Part shown: one piece after another, positions 9,776 to 18,673 of the stretch | How positions within the stretch are numbered: the stretch's first letter is position 1 | How the letters are laid out: the number at the start of each line of letters is the position of its first letter | Assembly: GCA_026996855.1 (NCBI GenBank) | Contig: JALWJZ010000016.1 | Coordinates: forward strand, 567-64,566 | DNA length: 64,000 bases | Direction of reading: 5' to 3' | From: Anaerolineales bacterium | GTDB lineage: Bacteria; Chloroflexota; Anaerolineae; Anaerolineales; DRMV01 | Notes under the pieces: generated by a model | Database searches by the model: none | The model's input: only the letters and a program-made list of their open reading frames with translations | What the model was told of the DNA's origin: nothing | Position numbers and translations under genes: made by a program

Positions 9776-11194
9776 TCACCACAACAACCACAAGCCGTGG
9801 ACTGTGAGCAGCAGGGCAAACAAGACGGTAACGATTTGCACGGCCCAGCGCAAGGCTCGGACCTCGTTGGCTGGCACTTGGTTCGCGGGATGGTGCCAGG
9901 CTTCCATGAGTAACGTGAGGCCCAGATAGGCGGCGGTGAGCTCGGAGCCGCCGTAGGCGGCAAAGGGGATGGGCATGCCGGTGAAAGGCAACAGGCGCAG
10001 GGTGCCGCCCACGACCAGGGCCGTTTGCAAGCCCCACCACCAGGCCAGGCCCCAGGCCGTGCCTCCGGCGACGGTGGAAGGGCCGGCCCGGAGGGCCACC
10101 ACGAAGGCCCAGTACACCACCAGCAGCAGGCCACCCAGGAGGACCGCCGCACCCATCCAGCCCCAGATTTCGGCCACCGCGGCGTAGAACATGTCGGAGT
10201 GCACCAGGGGCACCCGCTGCGGATGGGCCAGCGCGGGTCCGGTTCCCGTCCAGGCCCCGCGGCGCAGGGCTTTTGTCGCCTGGAGGATTTGATAACCCGC
10301 ACCCCAGGGGTCGGTTTGGGGCGCCAGCCAGGCCAGCAGCCGGGTCTGGACGCGAGGGAGACGCCAGGCCCAGGCCCCGCCCAAGACCAACAAAAGCCCC
10401 AGTCCGGGAAGCAGGTGTTTGCGGTACTCGGCGTATCGAGCGGTCATCGTTGCGGTCATCAACAGGAAGAGGGCCAGATTGCCCAGGTCGCCTTGCAAGA
10501 ACAGGAGTACCCCGGTCAGGGCCAGGCCGGCCCACCAAAGGCGGTGCCGATGCCGATAGACCCAGCGCCATCGTTCGTTTTTGGTCCAACGGGCGTGCTG
10601 TCCGAACGCACCATCCAGGCCGCTCCCCAGACCCCAGGCCAGGTAGCCCAGGGTGGTCACCTTGTGCCAGGCCGCGGGTTGGAAGTACACGCCGCAACAG
10701 CCCAGCCACAACCGTACCTGTTGTCCGCCAGGGTGCACTCCGATGGCCAGGGTAAGCGCCATGAGCCCACTGGTGAGCAAATACCCTCCGAGGAGTACCG
10801 GCGTACTGAAAAAGGACCTCTTCCAGGTCTTTCGAACCAACACCAGGCCGTACAGGCCCAACACGCCCAAGAGAAAAGCCAGGGCCTGGTGCAAGGCATA
10901 CCCCGGATGGATGAGGGCCAGGGTGTGCAGGCTCCACCCGGTGAGCAAGGTGGCCAGAGCCGTACCGGCCCAAAGGGTTTCGGGGAAGGCGCGATAAGCC
11001 AGGAGCATGTACACACCGTACCCCAGGCCCCATACCAGGGTGACCCCGTAGAAAATCGTATCCAGGTCGGGGCGGAGGCGGGCCAGTTTCCAAGCCAGCA
11101 CGGCCATGAGGAACAGAGGCACCGCCGCGGTCATCGGTGGCCCGCGGCGGTGCAGAAACGGTCGGGCCGGGTCCGAACCGAGGTCGGGGTTCAT
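9776..11194 (-). CDS. FtsW/RodA/SpoVE (SEDS) family peptidoglycan polymerase
   Basis: C-terminal SEDS signature PLVHSDMFYAAVAEIWG..LLPFTGMPIPFAAYGGSE. The ATG at 11194 forms an ATGA overlap with the upstream stop; 11134 is an alternative start. Confidence 0.8.
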   Translation of the reverse strand: MNPDLGSDPARPFLHRRGPPMTAAVPLFLMAVLAWKLARLRPDLDTIFYGVTLVWGLGYGVYMLLAYRAFPETLWAGTALATLLTGWSLHTLALIHPGYALHQALAFLLGVLGLYGLVLVRKTWKRSFFSTPVLLGGYLLTSGLMALTLAIGVHPGGQQVRLWLGCCGVYFQPAAWHKVTTLGYLAWGLGSGLDGAFGQHARWTKNERWRWVYRHRHRLWWAGLALTGVLLFLQGDLGNLALFLLMTATMTARYAEYRKHLLPGLGLLLVLGGAWAWRLPRVQTRLLAWLAPQTDPWGAGYQILQATKALRRGAWTGTGPALAHPQRVPLVHSDMFYAAVAEIWGWMGAAVLLGGLLLVVYWAFVVALRAGPSTVAGGTAWGLAWWWGLQTALVVGGTLRLLPFTGMPIPFAAYGGSELTAAYLGLTLLMEAWHHPANQVPANEVRALRWAVQIVTVLFALLLTVHGLWLLW

Positions 11195-12108
11195 ACCAAG
11201 GGCGCTCCGCAGCGATGGCAATAGTGGGCGTCCGGCAGGCTCCGGGCGTGGCAAACGGGACAGGCGCGGACCTTACCCGGGCGGCCGCGTTTTCTACCGC
11301 GGGTCGGTTGGGACCGTTCTTTCCACCATACCCAACCTGCCATGCCCAACACCAGCAGGCCCAGGCCCGTCAACACCCAGGGCAGGTAGGTGCTCCAGGC
11401 GGCCTTCCACCAACCCGTATCCGGTTTCGCTTCCGGGCCGGGTGGCGTCTGGCCCACTTTTTGTTGGGCTTCCAGGTGTTCCACGGTCAGGACCTCGTCG
11501 GGTTTGTGGTAGCGGATTTCCACTTGCAGGGGCGTGCCTTTGGGCAGAGACCCCAGGTCCTTCTCGTACATCTCCAGGCCGAAGTCCGTGGCCCCAATGG
11601 GTTCCAGGGGTGGATGCACCTGCAAGTCCGTTGCGTTCCAGGGTTTTTGCACGTGCACGATGAGCCGGTCCACTTCCAGGTCACCCGGCCATTCGTGGAC
11701 GAAGGAACGGAGCGTGCCCTCTTTTTCCAAAGCCGGGTCGTAGTATTCCACCTGTACATAGGGCTGCTCTACCTGAATGTGGAGCCAGGCCCAGGGACTG
11801 CCGGCATCGCCTTGATACTCGTAGGCTGCGTTGATGAGCGTTTCATCGGGGGAAGGGGCATGGGCCACCGCGTGGGGCCGTCCGGCCCGGGTGGGAATGC
11901 GTAGCGAAAGCCTCCCGGGCAGGGTCGCGTCCGGGGGCAGGGTGATGCGGTAGATGACCAGCATGGCCGGACGGTCGAACTCCGGCCAGAATTCCATGCG
12001 CAACAGCGCCACCCGTTCCAGGGGCGGTGTTTCTGCCCGGGGGAATAGGACCTGAGCGGCCCCTGTGAACAGGAGAAGCGCTGCCAGGCTCAAGAGAACA
12101 CGTTTCAT
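11191..12108 (-). CDS. signal-peptide protein with a single C-proximal TM helix and a cytoplasmic zinc ribbon
   Basis: MKRVLLSLAALLLFTGAAQ signal peptide, TM segment YLPWVLTGLGLLVLGMAGWVWW, and tail CPVCH..YCHRCG. ATGA overlap with the Nudix stop. Confidence 0.6.
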   Translation of the reverse strand: MKRVLLSLAALLLFTGAAQVLFPRAETPPLERVALLRMEFWPEFDRPAMLVIYRITLPPDATLPGRLSLRIPTRAGRPHAVAHAPSPDETLINAAYEYQGDAGSPWAWLHIQVEQPYVQVEYYDPALEKEGTLRSFVHEWPGDLEVDRLIVHVQKPWNATDLQVHPPLEPIGATDFGLEMYEKDLGSLPKGTPLQVEIRYHKPDEVLTVEHLEAQQKVGQTPPGPEAKPDTGWWKAAWSTYLPWVLTGLGLLVLGMAGWVWWKERSQPTRGRKRGRPGKVRACPVCHARSLPDAHYCHRCGAPLV

Positions 12109-12653
12109 GGCTTGGCCTCCAGGGTTTGGAGATAGGGAAAGGCCAGAAAAAGGGCTGCCAGGGTTTTGCCGTCCTGGATTTCCCCCTCGCGCACCATGTG
12201 CCACACCTGGGGCCAGGGCAAGGCCACGGGTTCGATGATTTCGTCCGAATCGTGTTCCAGCGGCGCGGGCTTGAGTTGTTGGGCCAGATAAGCGACAATT
12301 TTCTCCGTGGTGTAGCCCGGTGCGGGGTAAAGGCTTCCCAAGAAGGCCCATTCCAGGGCCATGAAGCCAATTTCCTCTCGTAATTCCCGTTGGGCGCACA
12401 CCAGGGGGTTCTCCTCGGGTTCCAGGGTGCCGGCCGGAAGTTCCAGGAGGGTTTGATTCACTGCATAACGATACTGCCTGGTGAACCAGATGTTCCCCTT
12501 TTCGTCGATGGGCAAAATGAGCACCGCTCCCCGATGCTCCACGATATCCATGGTGGTTTCCCGGCCGTTGGGCAATCGGATGCGGTCCTGACGAAGCCGA
12601 AAAACTCGACCTTCAAAGAGCACCCGGCGTTCCAGTACATCCACCTGGGTCAT
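12105..12653 (-). CDS. NUDIX hydrolase (ADP-ribose pyrophosphatase-like)
   Basis: Nudix box GTLEPEENPLVCAQRELREEIGF. Confidence 0.85.
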   Translation of the reverse strand: MTQVDVLERRVLFEGRVFRLRQDRIRLPNGRETTMDIVEHRGAVLILPIDEKGNIWFTRQYRYAVNQTLLELPAGTLEPEENPLVCAQRELREEIGFMALEWAFLGSLYPAPGYTTEKIVAYLAQQLKPAPLEHDSDEIIEPVALPWPQVWHMVREGEIQDGKTLAALFLAFPYLQTLEAKP

Positions 12654-13549: not shown

Positions 13550-16500
13550 CTACTTTTTCCCTATCAGCACCGCCCGCACCACCACGTGGTTTTTGAAACC
13601 GCCCGTGGCTTCGTCATATTGCCCACAGGTGAGCAAAGTCAACCAGGTGTAGCCGTCGTCTATCGGCTCCAGGGGCCAGGTGGCATGGGGCGGCACGTAG
13701 CGCACCTGCCGCACCTGGTACTCGTACACCGTGCCGTACACATGCACTCGGATGATGTCGCCCCAGCGCAGGGTGTGAATCTGCGCGAAGGGGCCGGGCA
13801 GGCCCGAAGGCAGCCAGTTGTGCGCGGTGAGCACGCTGTTCCCCTGCCAGCCGGGGAAGGCGGTGTTGGTCATCCAGGCCACATCGGTCAGCCAGGTGAG
13901 GTCCGCGGTGGGCTCGACACCCACGACTGGCGCCTCCACGCCCAGGCGGGGGATTTCCACCCACACCGGTCCCAGGTTCTGGTAAGGCAGCCGCGCCGGC
14001 GCGGCCGGGATGCGGGTCACCCGGCCCGGCGCGAAGCCCGTCTTGGGCAGGGGCGGCGGATAGGCCCGGGTGGGGTCGTCCGGCTCCGGCGTGGTGGGGT
14101 CGTCGGTGAGGGCAGGGGTGTCGTGGTCCACGTTGGCGTCGCCGGAGCCGACGGTGCCATCGCCGTTCTCGTCCCAATGGGCCAGGCCCTGGTTTTCCAC
14201 GTAGGCCGGTGCTCCCTCTACCTCGGTCTGGAAGGAGACGACCAGCGCATGGGCCGCGTCATGGGGATCGGTCACGCCCGGGTCCGGCGCGAGGTCGGCT
14301 TCTACTTCAATGTGTCCCGTCGTTGTATTGTAGGTGCAAACGTGCACCACGGTGGCGCCCTGCCCGGTGCAGGTCAAACTCCCGGGCACGTAGCGGGTGT
14401 TGGCCGGAATGGGGTCCGAAATCTGCACCCGCAAAGTTGTGGCGTTGCTGTTGTTCACCCATATCATTCGCCATATCAGCAGGGGCCAACCGTCATCGTC
14501 CACCGTTTTCCAACTCTCGGGTGGGTCGAAGAGGGTGGTTGCTTGAGCGGTCGCGTAATCGTCTTCGCGTGGGTCCCAGTTTCCCGGTGTGCTATCGGGG
14601 TCGGGTTGGTCGGCCGCGGTGATCTCGGCCACGTTGAGGTGCTCCCCGGCCCGGACCGTGGCCTGGAAGGTCAGGGCAACGCTTTCCCCGGGGTTCAGTC
14701 GGTCCACGGTCCAGCGCAGAATGGGCGCGGCGCTCTCGTCGGGGGTGATGACCGCTCCGGTGCTGCCGGGGTCGCCGCCGATGCTGCCGACGACGTAGGT
14801 GTAACCGTTGGGCAGGCGGTCCTCCACCTGCACCTGGGTGGCGTCGGAAGGCCCGTCGTTGCGCAGGGTGAGGGTGAACGTCACGGTGTCGCCGGGCTCC
14901 GCGGTGGTGGGCGTCACGCGCTTGGTCAGGCTCAGGTCCGCGCTCTGGGCCACCGCGGTGTCTTCGCTGGCGGTGTTGTTGTCCGTGTTCGGGTCGGGGG
15001 TGGTGGCGCTGACCTGGGCGGTGTTGGTCAGGGTGCCGGTGGCGCTGCTGCTCACCTGCACGGTGACCTGGCAACTGGCATGGGCGCCGTTCGCCAGGCT
15101 GCCCACGTTCCAGGTCCAGGTGGCGCCGCTCACGGAGCCACCGCAGGTGTCGCTCTGGTAAGAGACGTCCGCGGGCAGGGTGTCGGTGACGGTAACGCTG
15201 CTGGCATCGCTGGGGCCGTGGTTGGTCACGGTGAGGGCGTAGGTGAGGGTGCTGCCGGCGGTCACGGGGTCGGGGCTATCGGTTTTGGAAATGCTCAGGT
15301 CCGCGGCGGCCTGAATGGTGAGGACGTAGTCCTCCACTTCCCCATCTCGCATGGCCCCTGTGGGAGCCGAAGCGTTCAAGTTGGGGTCGGTGGAAAGGCG
15401 CAGGCGCAGGTAGGTATCGCCGGCCACCAGGCCGGAAAGGCCGCTCCAGGTCAGGGTCACGGTGCCCGCGGTGCCGTTGGGCACGGTCTGGCTCGCGGCC
15501 TCGGCGGGCTCGAAGGTGCCGTCCCGGTCGAAGTCCACCCAGCCCACCAGGGTGGCGTCCCGGCCCGTGTTGTTGGTGACCTGCACATCCAGGCTGTAGG
15601 AGGTCATGCCCTGGTGCAGGGGCGGCAGGGTGCTCACGCCGTCTTCGTCGTCGATGCCCGTTCGGTCGTCGCCGTCCGCGTTGGGGCCGTGGAGCGCGGG
15701 GTTTTCGCTGTCGGGCGGCGCGGCGCCCAGGTGCAGACCGCCCACCACGCCGTGGGCCGGATCGCCATAGCCCGCGGGCGCGTCGCCCCGGTCGCTGGTG
15801 ACCGCAATGTTGGGCCCGAACTCCGAAGTATTGCCGTCCGCGTCGGTGGCCGTGGTGGTGATTTCATCACCCAGACTCAGACCGCTCACGCCGGTAATGG
15901 TGCAGGCGAAGGCCCCGTTGGTCCCCAGAGTCACCGTGCAGGAACCCAGGTACTCGGCGCCCTCGCCGTGGGGCACGCGCTGGCCGTCCCCGGCTTCCAC
16001 CTCGCCGTCTTGGTTCGCGGGGTCGTTGTCGGCCTTGAAGACCTCGAGGGTGAAGGTGCCGCTGAGCCATTGGGCGGCCCGGTTGCTGCCGATGTAGCCC
16101 CACAGGTGCAGATCGGTGCCCACCAGGACCGCAGAGGTTAGGATGGGGTAATCCACCCCCCGGTTGCCCAGGTCGGGGTCCAGCGCGCCGTCGTTGGCCG
16201 TGACTCCGTCCCCCGGAGGTGCACTGGGGCTGCGGTTGGCCAGGTCGATACCCAGGTGGGCGTTGTCGTACACATGGTTTTGAGTCAGGGTGTTGCCGTG
16301 GGCGGCACGGTCTTCGGTGTTCACATAGATGCCCACGGTATTTCCGTACACCAGGTTCTTGCGCACGGTCACGCCCGAGGCGCCCTTGCGAATCATGATG
16401 CCGGCCAGGGCCGCGCCGTAACTGGTATTGTTCTCGATGAGGGTGTTGGTGGGCGGCTGGCCCGCGGAGCGGGAACCCACCTCGATGTTGCTTCCGCCCC

Positions 16501-18673
16501 CGTCGAAACCGCCATCGGTGGTTTGGTTGTACACCAGGTTGTAGCGCACCACGGAGTTGACGCCGTCCATATCGATGCCGTCGTGGGAGTCGGAGCGCCA
16601 GCCGTTGTGGGCCACCTCGTTGTATTCCACCAGCAGGGCGCTGTTGTTGAGGATGCCCAGGATGCCGCTGCGTCCGTTGTAGGCCACCAGGTTGTAGCGG
16701 GCAATCAGGTTGTACCGGCCCACGGGCGGCGGCGAAGAAGGTGAACGTTGCCGGATGCCGAAGTCCTGATTCTTCAACGCGTCGGGGGTGGGTGCGGTGC
16801 CGTCGGCCCGAGGCCCGACAAAGGTGTGTTCCACCACCCGGTCGGTGCCCGAACCGCCGTTGAAGGTGAGCGCGTCGTCCGCGTTGTACACGCTCAGGTG
16901 GCGGAGCACCACGCGAGAGGCGTTCCCGGCCACGGTGAAGGGGTCGCTGTCGTTGGCGTTGATTTCCAACTCTTTGCGCTGGAATTGGGGGAAGGGGACG
17001 GCATCCACGCCCACGGTGCCGCCGCTGCCCACCTGACCGGGGTTGGTGTCGCGCGTGGTGGTGCCATCGTCGTATTCGTAGGCGGTGCCGTCCACGGTGG
17101 TGTCGTGGTCCAGGATGACGGGCAGGCCACCGAGTTGCAGGTCCACCCGCCACCAGGCCCCGCCGCTGCCGCCGGCGTTGGTGCTCACCGTGGGCACGAA
17201 GTGCATGGCGTTGGCCCCGGCGATGGCGTTGGCGTTCTGGACGAACTGGCGCAGGCAGCCCTGGCAGGTGCGATCCGCAGCGGGGTCGTCGTCCCGGTCG
17301 TTCACGTTGGTCACCACGTTGAAGGAGAAACCGAAGTCCAGGCCGCTCACATCGGCGCTGGAAACCACCACCTTGGCGATGTGCTCCGCGCTTTCCAGGG
17401 TGGTGGCATCGTCGGAGGTGCTCCCCCGGCGCCCTCCCATGCAAGGCCCGGCCGAGGTGCGCACGTAAGGGTCGCCCGCACCCAACAGGCCGTCGGGGTT
17501 GGCGCAGTAGGCCCCCGCGGGACCGTAGGTTTGCTCGGCCCACACGTCACCCTGGTCGTAGCCGGTGTTGAAGCCGGCGTTGGGGGCGATGGTTTTGGAA
17601 TCCACCACCAGCCAGTAGGTGGCATTGGGGGCCGCGCCCAGGGCGAAAGAGCCGTCGCTGCCCGTCGTGGTCTGCGCGTGCAGCGGGTCCCCCGCGTCGG
17701 GCTGGCCGTCGCCGTCGTCCTGGAACAGAAGCACCTGCACATTGGGACGACCGATGCCATCGCCCAGGTTCCCATCGCCGTTGGGGTCTTCGTACACCCG
17801 GCCCTGCAGGGCAACCGGCTCGAAGTTGTACAGCACGTCATCCGTGGGACCAAAGGCGATGCGGAGACCGTCCACGAACATGCGCACGTCGCCGTTCCAG
17901 CCGGAGCCCACACCGACTTCCACACCCAGAACATAGGTCCGGCCCTGGCTCAAATCGGGAGGCGTGGGATCGCCCGGCAGGCCCGTTACGGGCCCGGACA
18001 GCCATTCCGGCAGGCTCGTATCGTAGTTCTGGACCGCGCCGGAGGCCGTCCCCGGGCCGGGGTCGCAATCCATGCAATACATCCAGAAATCGGCCTGGCG
18101 CAAATCGATGGTGCGTTGCACCCATACGTCTTCGGGAATGGGGGTAAAGGTGCCCCAATCTTGATAGACCTCTTCGTAAATCAAAAGGCCATAGGTGTCG
18201 TCTTGGGGGTTCGTGGGCGTGTTGCCGTCGTTGTACCAATACAGTTTGAGGGGTGGGTGAAAATGGGAAGCCACCGTGGTGCCGGCCGAGGCGCGGTAGT
18301 ACGCGTAGGCCAGGTGGCTCAGGGTATCCAGCCGCCGACCGGGGAAGTCCACCCCAGGCGTGCCGGGATCTTCCCAAATCAGGCGGAAATCCACCTTGTC
18401 CTGGCCGGGCGTGGTGAAATGCGTGACGAATTCCAGGGAACCCAAAGCGGGTGAAAGGGCGGTGTAGGGCGTGGCCCCGGAAAGGAAGGAGTCGGAATCG
18501 GCCCGTTTGTTGGCCTGGGTCCAGCCATGAGGGTTCGAGGGCGACACCACAATTTGTGTAGGGGCGGAAGCGGGGCGCAGAGGCGGTGTTGGGGCGCTTG
18601 AAACCAGAACGCTTGCGACGCCCAACCACCAGGCTCCAAGGCCCAGCCAGAGCAAAACCGCACGTTTTGCCAT
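13550..18673 (-). CDS. giant secreted surface protein: signal peptide, SdrD/Cna-B-like, parallel beta-helix (PbH1), GEVED, two DUF11 repeats, LPKTG, C-terminal sortase domain
   Basis: MAKRAVLLWLGLGAWWLGVASVLV signal peptide, NLVAYNG..YNEVAHNG..YNLVYNQ..NLVYGNT beta-helix repeats, MRDGEVEDYVL, and DLSISKTDSPDPV../DLSLTKRVTP.. DUF11 repeats. SD is GAGGAGGAGGG. Confidence 0.9.
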   Translation of the reverse strand: MAKRAVLLWLGLGAWWLGVASVLVSSAPTPPLRPASAPTQIVVSPSNPHGWTQANKRADSDSFLSGATPYTALSPALGSLEFVTHFTTPGQDKVDFRLIWEDPGTPGVDFPGRRLDTLSHLAYAYYRASAGTTVASHFHPPLKLYWYNDGNTPTNPQDDTYGLLIYEEVYQDWGTFTPIPEDVWVQRTIDLRQADFWMYCMDCDPGPGTASGAVQNYDTSLPEWLSGPVTGLPGDPTPPDLSQGRTYVLGVEVGVGSGWNGDVRMFVDGLRIAFGPTDDVLYNFEPVALQGRVYEDPNGDGNLGDGIGRPNVQVLLFQDDGDGQPDAGDPLHAQTTTGSDGSFALGAAPNATYWLVVDSKTIAPNAGFNTGYDQGDVWAEQTYGPAGAYCANPDGLLGAGDPYVRTSAGPCMGGRRGSTSDDATTLESAEHIAKVVVSSADVSGLDFGFSFNVVTNVNDRDDDPAADRTCQGCLRQFVQNANAIAGANAMHFVPTVSTNAGGSGGAWWRVDLQLGGLPVILDHDTTVDGTAYEYDDGTTTRDTNPGQVGSGGTVGVDAVPFPQFQRKELEINANDSDPFTVAGNASRVVLRHLSVYNADDALTFNGGSGTDRVVEHTFVGPRADGTAPTPDALKNQDFGIRQRSPSSPPPVGRYNLIARYNLVAYNGRSGILGILNNSALLVEYNEVAHNGWRSDSHDGIDMDGVNSVVRYNLVYNQTTDGGFDGGGSNIEVGSRSAGQPPTNTLIENNTSYGAALAGIMIRKGASGVTVRKNLVYGNTVGIYVNTEDRAAHGNTLTQNHVYDNAHLGIDLANRSPSAPPGDGVTANDGALDPDLGNRGVDYPILTSAVLVGTDLHLWGYIGSNRAAQWLSGTFTLEVFKADNDPANQDGEVEAGDGQRVPHGEGAEYLGSCTVTLGTNGAFACTITGVSGLSLGDEITTTATDADGNTSEFGPNIAVTSDRGDAPAGYGDPAHGVVGGLHLGAAPPDSENPALHGPNADGDDRTGIDDEDGVSTLPPLHQGMTSYSLDVQVTNNTGRDATLVGWVDFDRDGTFEPAEAASQTVPNGTAGTVTLTWSGLSGLVAGDTYLRLRLSTDPNLNASAPTGAMRDGEVEDYVLTIQAAADLSISKTDSPDPVTAGSTLTYALTVTNHGPSDASSVTVTDTLPADVSYQSDTCGGSVSGATWTWNVGSLANGAHASCQVTVQVSSSATGTLTNTAQVSATTPDPNTDNNTASEDTAVAQSADLSLTKRVTPTTAEPGDTVTFTLTLRNDGPSDATQVQVEDRLPNGYTYVVGSIGGDPGSTGAVITPDESAAPILRWTVDRLNPGESVALTFQATVRAGEHLNVAEITAADQPDPDSTPGNWDPREDDYATAQATTLFDPPESWKTVDDDGWPLLIWRMIWVNNSNATTLRVQISDPIPANTRYVPGSLTCTGQGATVVHVCTYNTTTGHIEVEADLAPDPGVTDPHDAAHALVVSFQTEVEGAPAYVENQGLAHWDENGDGTVGSGDANVDHDTPALTDDPTTPEPDDPTRAYPPPLPKTGFAPGRVTRIPAAPARLPYQNLGPVWVEIPRLGVEAPVVGVEPTADLTWLTDVAWMTNTAFPGWQGNSVLTAHNWLPSGLPGPFAQIHTLRWGDIIRVHVYGTVYEYQVRQVRYVPPHATWPLEPIDDGYTWLTLLTCGQYDEATGGFKNHVVVRAVLIGKK
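13553..14035 (-). other. sortase catalytic domain (in cis, last 161 aa of the giant protein)
   Basis: His in NSVLTAHN, TLxTC-type Cys in WLTLLTC (codon 13625-13627), Arg in HVVVRAV. No hydrophobic anchor between LPKTG and the domain. Confidence 0.8.
14036..14050 (-). other. LPXTG sorting motif (LPKTG) inside the giant ORF
   Basis: Reverse strand ctg ccc aag acg ggc, in the context PPLPKTGFAPGRV. Confidence 0.85.

Follow-up and report, generated by a model that had tools for sequence, protein, structure and literature searches.

We have analyzed a window of 64,000 nucleotides from an Anaerolineales bacterium (Chloroflexota, Anaerolineae; GenBank assembly GCA_026996855.1, contig JALWJZ010000016.1, positions 567 to 64,566 of the forward strand), and in particular one gene whose giant secreted product carries an LPXTG sorting motif and, behind it, a sortase domain of its own. 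The gene, all features of which are on the minus (-) strand, occupies positions 13550..18673 of the window; in the open reading frame (ORF) listing it has an ATG start, and it encodes 1707 residues followed by a TAG stop codon (13550-13552). A protein identical to this ORF is present in the public collection (P0121), encoded on a contig of 66.8 kb. The product begins with a Sec-type signal peptide, residues 1 to ~27 (18593..18673), made up of MAKR, a hydrophobic core and SSA, its cleavage site being putative. Hydrophobicity was assessed as the Kyte-Doolittle mean over 19 residues (KD19), with 1.6 as the threshold for a membrane-grade stretch. The N-terminus, MAKRAVLLWLGLGAWWLGVASVLVSSA, reaches 2.03 at residue 6 and is the sole stretch of the whole protein above 1.6; from Leu1542 to the stop KD19 peaks at 0.89. 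The passenger, residues 28-1541 (14051..18592), was scanned with Pfam and NCBIfam models and contains a Beta_helix match (residues 735-815; 16229-16471), a GEVED match (residues 1042-1118; 15320-15550) and two DUF11-type modules that are Ig-like and together span residues 1125-1365, the first matching DUF11 (residues 1125-1237; 14963-15301) and the second DUF11/DUF7927 (residues 1247-1365; 14579-14935).

The remainder of the protein, which we call the cassette, is the last 166 residues from Leu1542, with 161 residues of folded domain after the motif. It consists of the LPKTG motif (residues 1542-1546; 14036..14050, codons CTG CCC AAG ACG GGC), in which Thr1545-Gly1546 is the presumed scissile bond; a conserved linker, FAPGRVTRIPAAPARLPYQNLGPVW (residues 1547-1571; 13961..14035), recognized by family consensus and spacing; and the sortase catalytic domain (residues 1572-1703; 13565..13960), located by PF04203, AlphaFold2 and Foldseek. 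An initial annotation of this DNA had described an LPXTG signal joined in cis to a sortase domain at the end of a 1707-residue protein, with a signal peptide at the N-terminus and no hydrophobic anchor after the motif. This description is borne out in every part: motif and domain lie in one ORF, the interval it gave (13553-14050) runs exactly from Leu1542 to the last codon, and the KD19 values agree with both the signal peptide and the missing anchor.

The C-terminal domain has the profile and the predicted fold of a sortase. Residues 1572-1703 match PF04203 with an expected value (E) of 5e-20 and 71.9 bits, against a Pfam gathering cut-off of 26.6, which places them in the sortase superfamily. 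TIGR01076 is also passed, with 46.7-52 bits against a cut-off of 39.35, and is matched by 93 of 93 aligned members of the family. The last 186 residues, modelled by AlphaFold2 with the 93-sequence alignment as input, give a mean predicted local distance difference test score (pLDDT) of 93.3, a predicted template modelling score (pTM) of 0.86 and the eight-strand pattern of sortases, so that the enzyme domain of the cassette is predicted to have the eight-stranded beta-barrel sortase fold. When this model was compared with the PDB by Foldseek, the top 50 matches listed were all sortases, with a template modelling (TM) score of ~0.6 over ~140 residues. The best match was 2xwg, a class C pilus sortase (E 9e-11), with 2w1j and 3g66 next and class D, E and A enzymes after class C. 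A family profile run against PDB sequences gave the same class order (E 2.7e-17 for the Enterococcus faecalis Ebp class C sortase). Thus the sortase fold, which the initial annotation had offered as one of the points on which its reading could fail, is upheld by Pfam, AlphaFold2 and Foldseek.

Assignment to a class is another matter. For the window module, the NCBIfam class model with the best E-value is that of class F (NF033748), but its 52 bits fall far short of the cut-off of 166; some relatives are named class F in their records. The class C model (NF033745) scores 41 bits against 160, with a best E-value of 1e-17 among the 93 members; the class E, class D and GN models score 36 bits against 160, 25 bits against 165 and 25 bits against 158, respectively, and the class A and class B NCBIfam models give zero matches to the module. 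No NCBIfam class model comes near its cut-off in any of the 93 aligned members, and the generic sortase model passes. Judged by these profiles, the module is a member of the sortase superfamily that lies outside every described class. The profile check suggested in the initial annotation therefore confirms the domain at 1572-1703 and leaves it with no fitting class model.

The architecture is widespread. With the last 184 residues as query, a word-indexed search returned 170 matches; ~100 of the 120 listed have [LIV]PxTGF right before the domain, and the remaining listed matches are mostly N-truncated fragments. When 1.84 billion representatives were searched exhaustively with HMMER, 4377 proteins matched at E<=1e-3; 1510 of them did so at <=1e-10 and 688 at <=1e-30, the last number being clusters at 50% identity. 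The sortase match terminates the protein in 150 of the 150 best HMMER representatives, with proteins of up to 4975 aa. Scanning 185,579 species-representative genomes with a 6-sequence alignment as query confirmed 361 loci, and among the best 80 of these 361, from which the taxonomy was taken, 78 are named Anaerolineales, Anaerolineae, Chloroflexota or similar; LPxTGFAP-sortase sequences in Chloroflexota metagenomes had indeed been mentioned in the initial annotation. The two non-Chloroflexota labels among the best 80 belong to an Acidithiobacillus ferrivorans bin (L026) and a Solirubrobacteraceae bin (L042); because they are on contigs of 2.8-3.8 kb, both are probably mis-binned rather than members from other phyla. 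Hundreds of independent assemblies share this architecture, which rules out an assembly or fusion artefact. Several genomes have 2-4 cassette loci apiece, and at four loci giant genes stand in tandem pairs in which each gene has its own LPxTGF-sortase cassette: L027 (3-3080 and 3473-10546), L059 (2-5080 and 5558-10546), L037 (2-10588 and 11257-16806) and L040 (2-10555 and 11523-18482). The cassette family is one that grows through local duplication. In the databases its members are named 'sortase', 'class F sortase, partial', 'LPXTG-site transpeptidase family protein' or 'hypothetical protein'.

The motif in front of the domain is as strictly kept as the active site. In the window protein the pattern [LIVM]Px[TS]G occurs once, as LPKTG at 1542-1546. 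From composition, 0.105 LPxTG would be expected per whole protein and 0.0025 per given 40-residue stretch, so that the lone LPKTG is mildly surprising and by itself weak evidence; a chance origin is ruled out by family conservation and not by this single-sequence statistic. Over 342 non-redundant homologous modules, motif position 1 is L in 83% (otherwise I, V, M, N or A), P is found in 99.4%, X is free (at least 14 different residues), T is found in 97.9% (Ser in 6, Asn in 1), G in 100%, and the F that follows in 98.5%. These values are on a par with those of the catalytic His (100%) and Cys (99.7%). The six residues upstream of the motif Leu have no conservation, and the conserved unit thus starts exactly at the Leu of LPxTG. 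Downstream, the linker has the consensus F-A-P-[GND]-x-[VI]-T-x-L-P-x-Q-P-x4-Y (A 88%, P 92%, T 88%), and the spacing from Thr to Cys is 138-143 residues in 95% of 145 representatives. The AlphaFold2 predictions change at the same point: pLDDT rises from 59-72 to 94 at the block holding LPKTGFAPGR in the window module and from 54-68 to 91-98 at the motif in P0004, a typical member, and the linker is predicted to be ordered (pLDDT 94-98).

Equivalences of catalytic residues were taken from a profile-profile alignment with Staphylococcus aureus SrtA, with which a phmmer alignment to the class A sortase 7s54 agrees. His1618 (in VLTAHN; 13820..13822) aligns with SrtA His120 and is invariant in 342 of 342 modules; Cys1683 (in TLLTC; 13625..13627) aligns with SrtA Cys184 and is present in 341 of 342. 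The initial annotation had completed its catalytic triad with the Arg of VVVRAV. Its His and Cys stand, but this Arg, Arg1700 (13574..13576), is four residues past the canonical site: it is a family-specific second Arg at Cys+17, a non-catalytic position in SrtA. The canonical beta8 position at Cys+13, equivalent to SrtA Arg197, is occupied in the window protein by His1696 (codon CAC; 13586..13588). In the family Cys+13 is generally Arg (336 of 341 modules, 98.5%), and Cys+17 is Arg in 292 of the 341 and Gln in 35. In the alignment columns that correspond to 13574-13588 of the window, Cys+17 is thus Gln in ~10% of modules and Lys, Gly or Ser in a few, and modules with a residue other than Arg at Cys+17 retain the Cys+13 Arg, except P0154 and L053 (Lys; Arg shifted one residue later). 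His at Cys+13 is restricted to the window protein, counted twice as the ORF and its identical record P0121, and to P0265; the nearest relatives of the window protein, L001 (module 85% identical) and P0122, have Arg. Both of these independent lineages without the Cys+13 Arg have His in its place and keep the Arg at Cys+17.

These substitutions raise the question of whether the window copy, and this copy only, is a decaying relic, inactivated by the change from Arg to His and by other deviations and carried along as a C-terminal appendage. The residue lost at 1696 is one that 98.5% of modules keep, and no other module deviates at as many conserved columns as that of the window (7 of 43). However, its His, its Cys, the entire LPKTGF and the reading frame are intact, Arg1700 is on the same strand as His1696, and P0265 arrived independently at His in Cys+13 with all else conserved. 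Moreover, five of the seven deviations are common to the sub-clade relatives P0122 and L001, and they thus mark a sub-clade and not decay. We consider inactivation of the window copy to be quite improbable.

The cassette is found behind many different proteins. The survey of domain architectures that the initial annotation called for shows the motif-sortase unit recurring throughout the 342 modules on unrelated passengers. The 41 complete homologous ORFs range from ~620 to 3332 residues, bar two short and probably truncated ones, and most have a signal-peptide-like N-terminus; a membrane-grade stretch (KD19 >=1.6) after the motif is absent in all 68 modules checked. By domain scans, the passengers of ten homologues are mutually unrelated, and include Chlamydia-PMP/beta-helix types, PQQ, Kelch and DUF5122 propellers, DUF7933 x7, DUF11 and DUF7507. 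This distribution over unrelated passengers is as would be expected of a sorting signal. Many members (e.g. P0003, P0004, P0005, P0022 and P0026) share a segment F-N-x2-S-T-E-R-[WFLS]-Y-D-P-x5-8-Y that lies 40-55 residues upstream of the motif and may close a last passenger domain which they have in common; the window protein lacks this segment. A search for relatives of the last passenger domain with a classical anchor yielded one fragment, and among the fetched loci there are no passenger paralogues without the cassette, merely pieces of frameshifted giant genes.

Gene context points in the same direction. When the window and 1.29 Mb of related DNA were searched with a hidden Markov model (HMM) of the domain, 86 sortase ORFs emerged; each of the 86 contains an LPx[TS]G[FY] of its own, and sortases of other types were not detected in this DNA. 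Within the sampled DNA there is thus one enzyme per substrate. A classical tail, in which LPXTG is followed by a hydrophobic segment and Arg/Lys, was found neither among the ORFs of the 1.29 Mb of neighbourhoods nor among those of the window. Clustering of neighbour genes at 83 loci revealed no conserved partner gene, and the recurrent neighbours (aminotransferase, phosphoglycerate kinase, triose-phosphate isomerase) are inherited housekeeping synteny. In the window the neighbours encode Lon, a XerC-like recombinase, FtsW/RodA and a NUDIX protein, and from the FtsW/RodA gene it follows that the organism makes peptidoglycan. No pilin operon context was seen in the neighbourhoods or in the window.

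The last observation bears on an intermolecular alternative, in which the sortase of one molecule would cut the motif of another and couple it to a sibling through a Lys or N-terminal amine, so that covalent fibres or a mesh would form. The nearest relatives of the module are the class C sortases that polymerise pili, many passengers have the DUF11, DUF7933 and SpaA-like Ig folds that are typical of pilins and isopeptide domains, and tandem paralogues occur. Nevertheless the propeller and beta-helix passengers seem too diverse to offer a common pilin-type acceptor, mature N-termini are unconserved, and the ordered linker of fixed length points to a defined geometry in cis rather than to a flexible tether. 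With pilin operons absent as well, we regard polymerisation as unlikely.

Comparison with known systems helps to define what the cassette might be. The best structure and profile matches are the class C sortases, e.g. Actinomyces oris SrtC-1 (2xwg), Streptococcus pneumoniae SrtC-1 (2w1j) and SrtC1/C2 of group B Streptococcus. The cassette shares with them the beta-barrel, the His/Cys active site and a substrate-resembling segment, ~25 residues before beta1 and ordered on the domain, which in class C is the lid. In the family profile alignment the motif region matches the lid region. The class C lid has been shown to overlap with the LPAT peptide of peptide-bound SrtA and to serve as a pseudo-substrate in the LPXT groove (Cozzi et al., PMC3493515). 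Since the lid sits in that groove, a segment at this place can reach it, and docking in cis is sterically precedented. The differences from class C are also clear. The lid DP[FWY] is replaced by a genuine LPxTGF (LPxTGF-APG in the lid region), the cassette is without N- or C-terminal membrane anchors and without a pilin operon, having housekeeping neighbours instead, and its sortase is the end of a secreted protein of 600-5000 aa, not a separate enzyme.

This kinship suggests a second alternative, namely that LPxTGF is an uncleaved autoinhibitory lid and that the tethered sortase processes other proteins in trans. In its favour are the class C identity of the closest structures and profiles, the alignment of the motif region with a known pseudo-substrate, the predicted order of the motif segment in the AlphaFold2 models and the invariant aromatic Phe after the Gly, which resembles the lid aromatic. 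A lid, however, has no need for L, P, T and G all to be conserved with X free, which is the signature of a substrate. There are also zero trans substrates with a canonical signal in the 1.29 Mb of neighbourhoods, and the presence of an enzyme on each giant protein, on unrelated passengers and several times per genome, is more in keeping with a signal than with a housekeeping enzyme. Joint loss of the catalytic Cys and the scissile Thr in P0223, described below, is a further argument against it. A lid acting in this manner is therefore rather improbable in our view.

The likeness of the cassette to a canonical sorting signal is that of a C-terminal LPXTG with a free X, present on many unrelated secreted, adhesin-like proteins with signal peptides. 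Unlike such a signal, it has a folded sortase domain in place of the hydrophobic segment and the Arg/Lys tail, and unlike a canonical class A/E system, where the membrane-anchored sortase is a separate protein, it has enzyme and substrate in one chain, 1:1. In its working, the cassette would come closest to a classical LPXTG signal combined with a class C-like sortase.

Two observations link the motif to the active site that follows it. Among the 342 modules, P0223 is unique in having the catalytic Cys changed to Arg, and it is also unique in having the motif Thr changed to Asn (LPANGF); given one of each, the chance of this coincidence is ~1/327. In addition, motif position 1 co-varies with module residue 147, which is part of the short helix within the beta6/beta7 loop (residues 1542 and 1668 of the window protein; 21 and 147 of the module). 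Mutual information with average product correction (APC), calculated over 328 modules (~254 effective), ranks this pair 71 of ~14,000. Leu-type motifs pair with Leu or Phe at residue 147, and an NPxTGF sub-clade and several I, V and A motif variants pair with Thr147: motif position 1 is other than Leu in 12 of 18 modules with Thr147 vs 44 of the 308 that lack it (Fisher p 1.8e-6, with no correction for phylogeny). In SrtA and SrtB it is the beta6/beta7 loop that reads the first residues of the motif. Within the NPxTGF sub-clade (8 sequences), Thr, Ala or Asn replaces the Leu/Phe of the loop helix, and motif and enzyme look as if they shift specificity jointly.

Taken together, the comparative data support a self-directed function of the cassette, because the motif is kept as strictly as the catalytic residues, with conservation starting at its Leu, because the passengers are unrelated while all 86 ORFs have their own motif and no canonical substrate is nearby, and because Cys and scissile Thr were lost together in P0223. 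The LPKTG-sortase unit looks like a self-contained anchoring device that has not been described. Our preferred reading, to which we give a probability of about one half, is that the cassette is a portable, single-turnover self-sorting unit, which cuts its own Thr-Gly bond and passes the passenger to an amine of the envelope. Such a unit would be composed of the LPXTG recognition motif, the ordered and conserved linker of 25 residues and the His/Cys sortase domain. Sec would export the whole protein, and the cassette would emerge and fold last, beside the membrane. The motif would then dock in the substrate groove of its own sortase domain, where the lid of class C is held, and Cys1683 would attack Thr1545-Gly1546, leaving the passenger, complete to residue 1545, thioester-linked to the enzyme. 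An amine would resolve the thioester, the likeliest acceptor being a stem-peptide amine of peptidoglycan or lipid II. The passenger would end covalently fixed to the envelope, and a sortase domain of ~18 kDa starting GFAPG would be released. With one enzyme per substrate there would be a single turnover, formally like the autoprocessing of Hedgehog or inteins. The docking in cis, the cleavage and the acceptor are the parts of this scheme that we infer.

Several points weigh against self-sorting as set out here. A secreted, unanchored sortase has no obvious route to lipid II. The co-loss of Cys and Thr is seen in one sequence, and the co-variation between the motif and residue 147 is partly phylogenetic. 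In the profile alignment the Pro of the class C lid pairs with the Pro of F-A-P and not with that of L-P, so that the groove might hold FAPG, with LPKTG a few residues outside. The search for separate sortases and canonical substrates was confined to gene neighbourhoods. Finally, the window module is the most divergent of the set, with seven of 43 highly conserved columns differing vs a median of one, and His1696 at the canonical Arg position may reduce the activity of this copy.

The missing membrane anchor leads to a third alternative, hydrolytic self-release, in which the sortase domain merely hydrolyses its own Thr-Gly bond and frees the passenger to the medium without transpeptidation. 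Nothing would hold the enzyme by lipid II, sortases slowly hydrolyse the acyl intermediate if a nucleophile is absent, and engineered sortase-LPXTG fusions self-cleave. On the other hand sortases are poor hydrolases, giant adhesin-like passengers would be expected to remain on the cell, and the strictness of the full transpeptidase site together with the conservation after the Gly exceeds what simple release needs. We think it distinctly unlikely that hydrolysis is the whole of the reaction, and equally doubtful that the cassette serves in such a releasing role as an autoprotease, a folding aid or a secretion aid.

For the self-sorting reading, the Hint domains at the C-terminus of Hedgehog proteins and the inteins are working analogies only: there too a junction bond becomes a thioester, the passenger passes to a nucleophile and the turnover is single. 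Unlike them, the cassette has a sortase beta-barrel of unrelated ancestry, and its Cys is ~140 residues downstream of the junction and not at the junction. Enzyme and motif are also found in one polypeptide in the engineered self-cleaving tags of the type SrtA-LPETG-target, which are cut at Thr-Gly. These artificial tags have the order enzyme-motif-cargo, whereas the natural order is cargo-motif-enzyme and the enzyme is the leaving group. No description of a natural substrate-sortase fusion was found in the full text of open-access papers, in line with the initial annotation, which knew of no functional description; a 2021 review of sortase roles leaves such fusions unmentioned.

Textbook sortases act in trans, are anchored in the membrane and serve many substrates per enzyme. 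A family in which every substrate has its own unanchored sortase would, if self-sorting is correct, alter this picture, and would do so at the scale of at least 688 clusters at 50% identity with several genes per genome. As a tentative proposal, to which we give slightly less than even odds, the cassettes might constitute a functionally new class of sortases, namely single-turnover auto-sortases, each joined to its sole substrate, which would replace the membrane-anchor part of the signal and fix giant adhesins covalently to the envelope of Anaerolineae through a self-generated thioester. Filamentous Anaerolineae, whose envelope is poorly understood, occur in large numbers in wastewater sludge, digesters and sediments; self-sorting would explain how they display giant surface proteins. 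It would also mean that bacteria have an equivalent of Hedgehog-type autoprocessing and that a protein tag able to ligate itself exists in nature, and it would offer a compact module of ~170 residues for self-cleaving or self-ligating protein engineering.

Some cassette genes are broken or incomplete. Frameshifts split giant genes at L083 (1752-8534), L048 (2515-10579), L038 (3724-10510) and L008 (1487-10585), and at least one of these probably reflects the indel errors of long-read assembly. For example, P0065 (L083, 8001-8534) was considered as a stand-alone sortase and rejected, being the last fragment of a frameshifted giant gene. Because frameshifts split giant genes, short 'stand-alone sortases' in databases can be gene-calling artefacts. 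A true orphan is P0001 (L081, 10001-10555; the same in L082, 2744-3298), an LPKTGF-sortase module of 184 aa with His, Cys and Arg intact and with neither signal peptide nor passenger. It is located between F420-related genes and a cytochrome c gene and is preceded by ~340 nt of stop-rich DNA that looks non-coding; it is either the remnant of a deleted giant gene or a module expressed independently.

One further ORF of the window, at 11191-12399 (-) between the NUDIX and FtsW/RodA genes, is without a Pfam match. It has an internal start resembling a signal peptide, MKRVLLSLAALLLFTGAAQ, and a hydrophobic segment close to the C-terminus, and it terminates in CPVC...HYCHRCG, which is zinc-ribbon-like.

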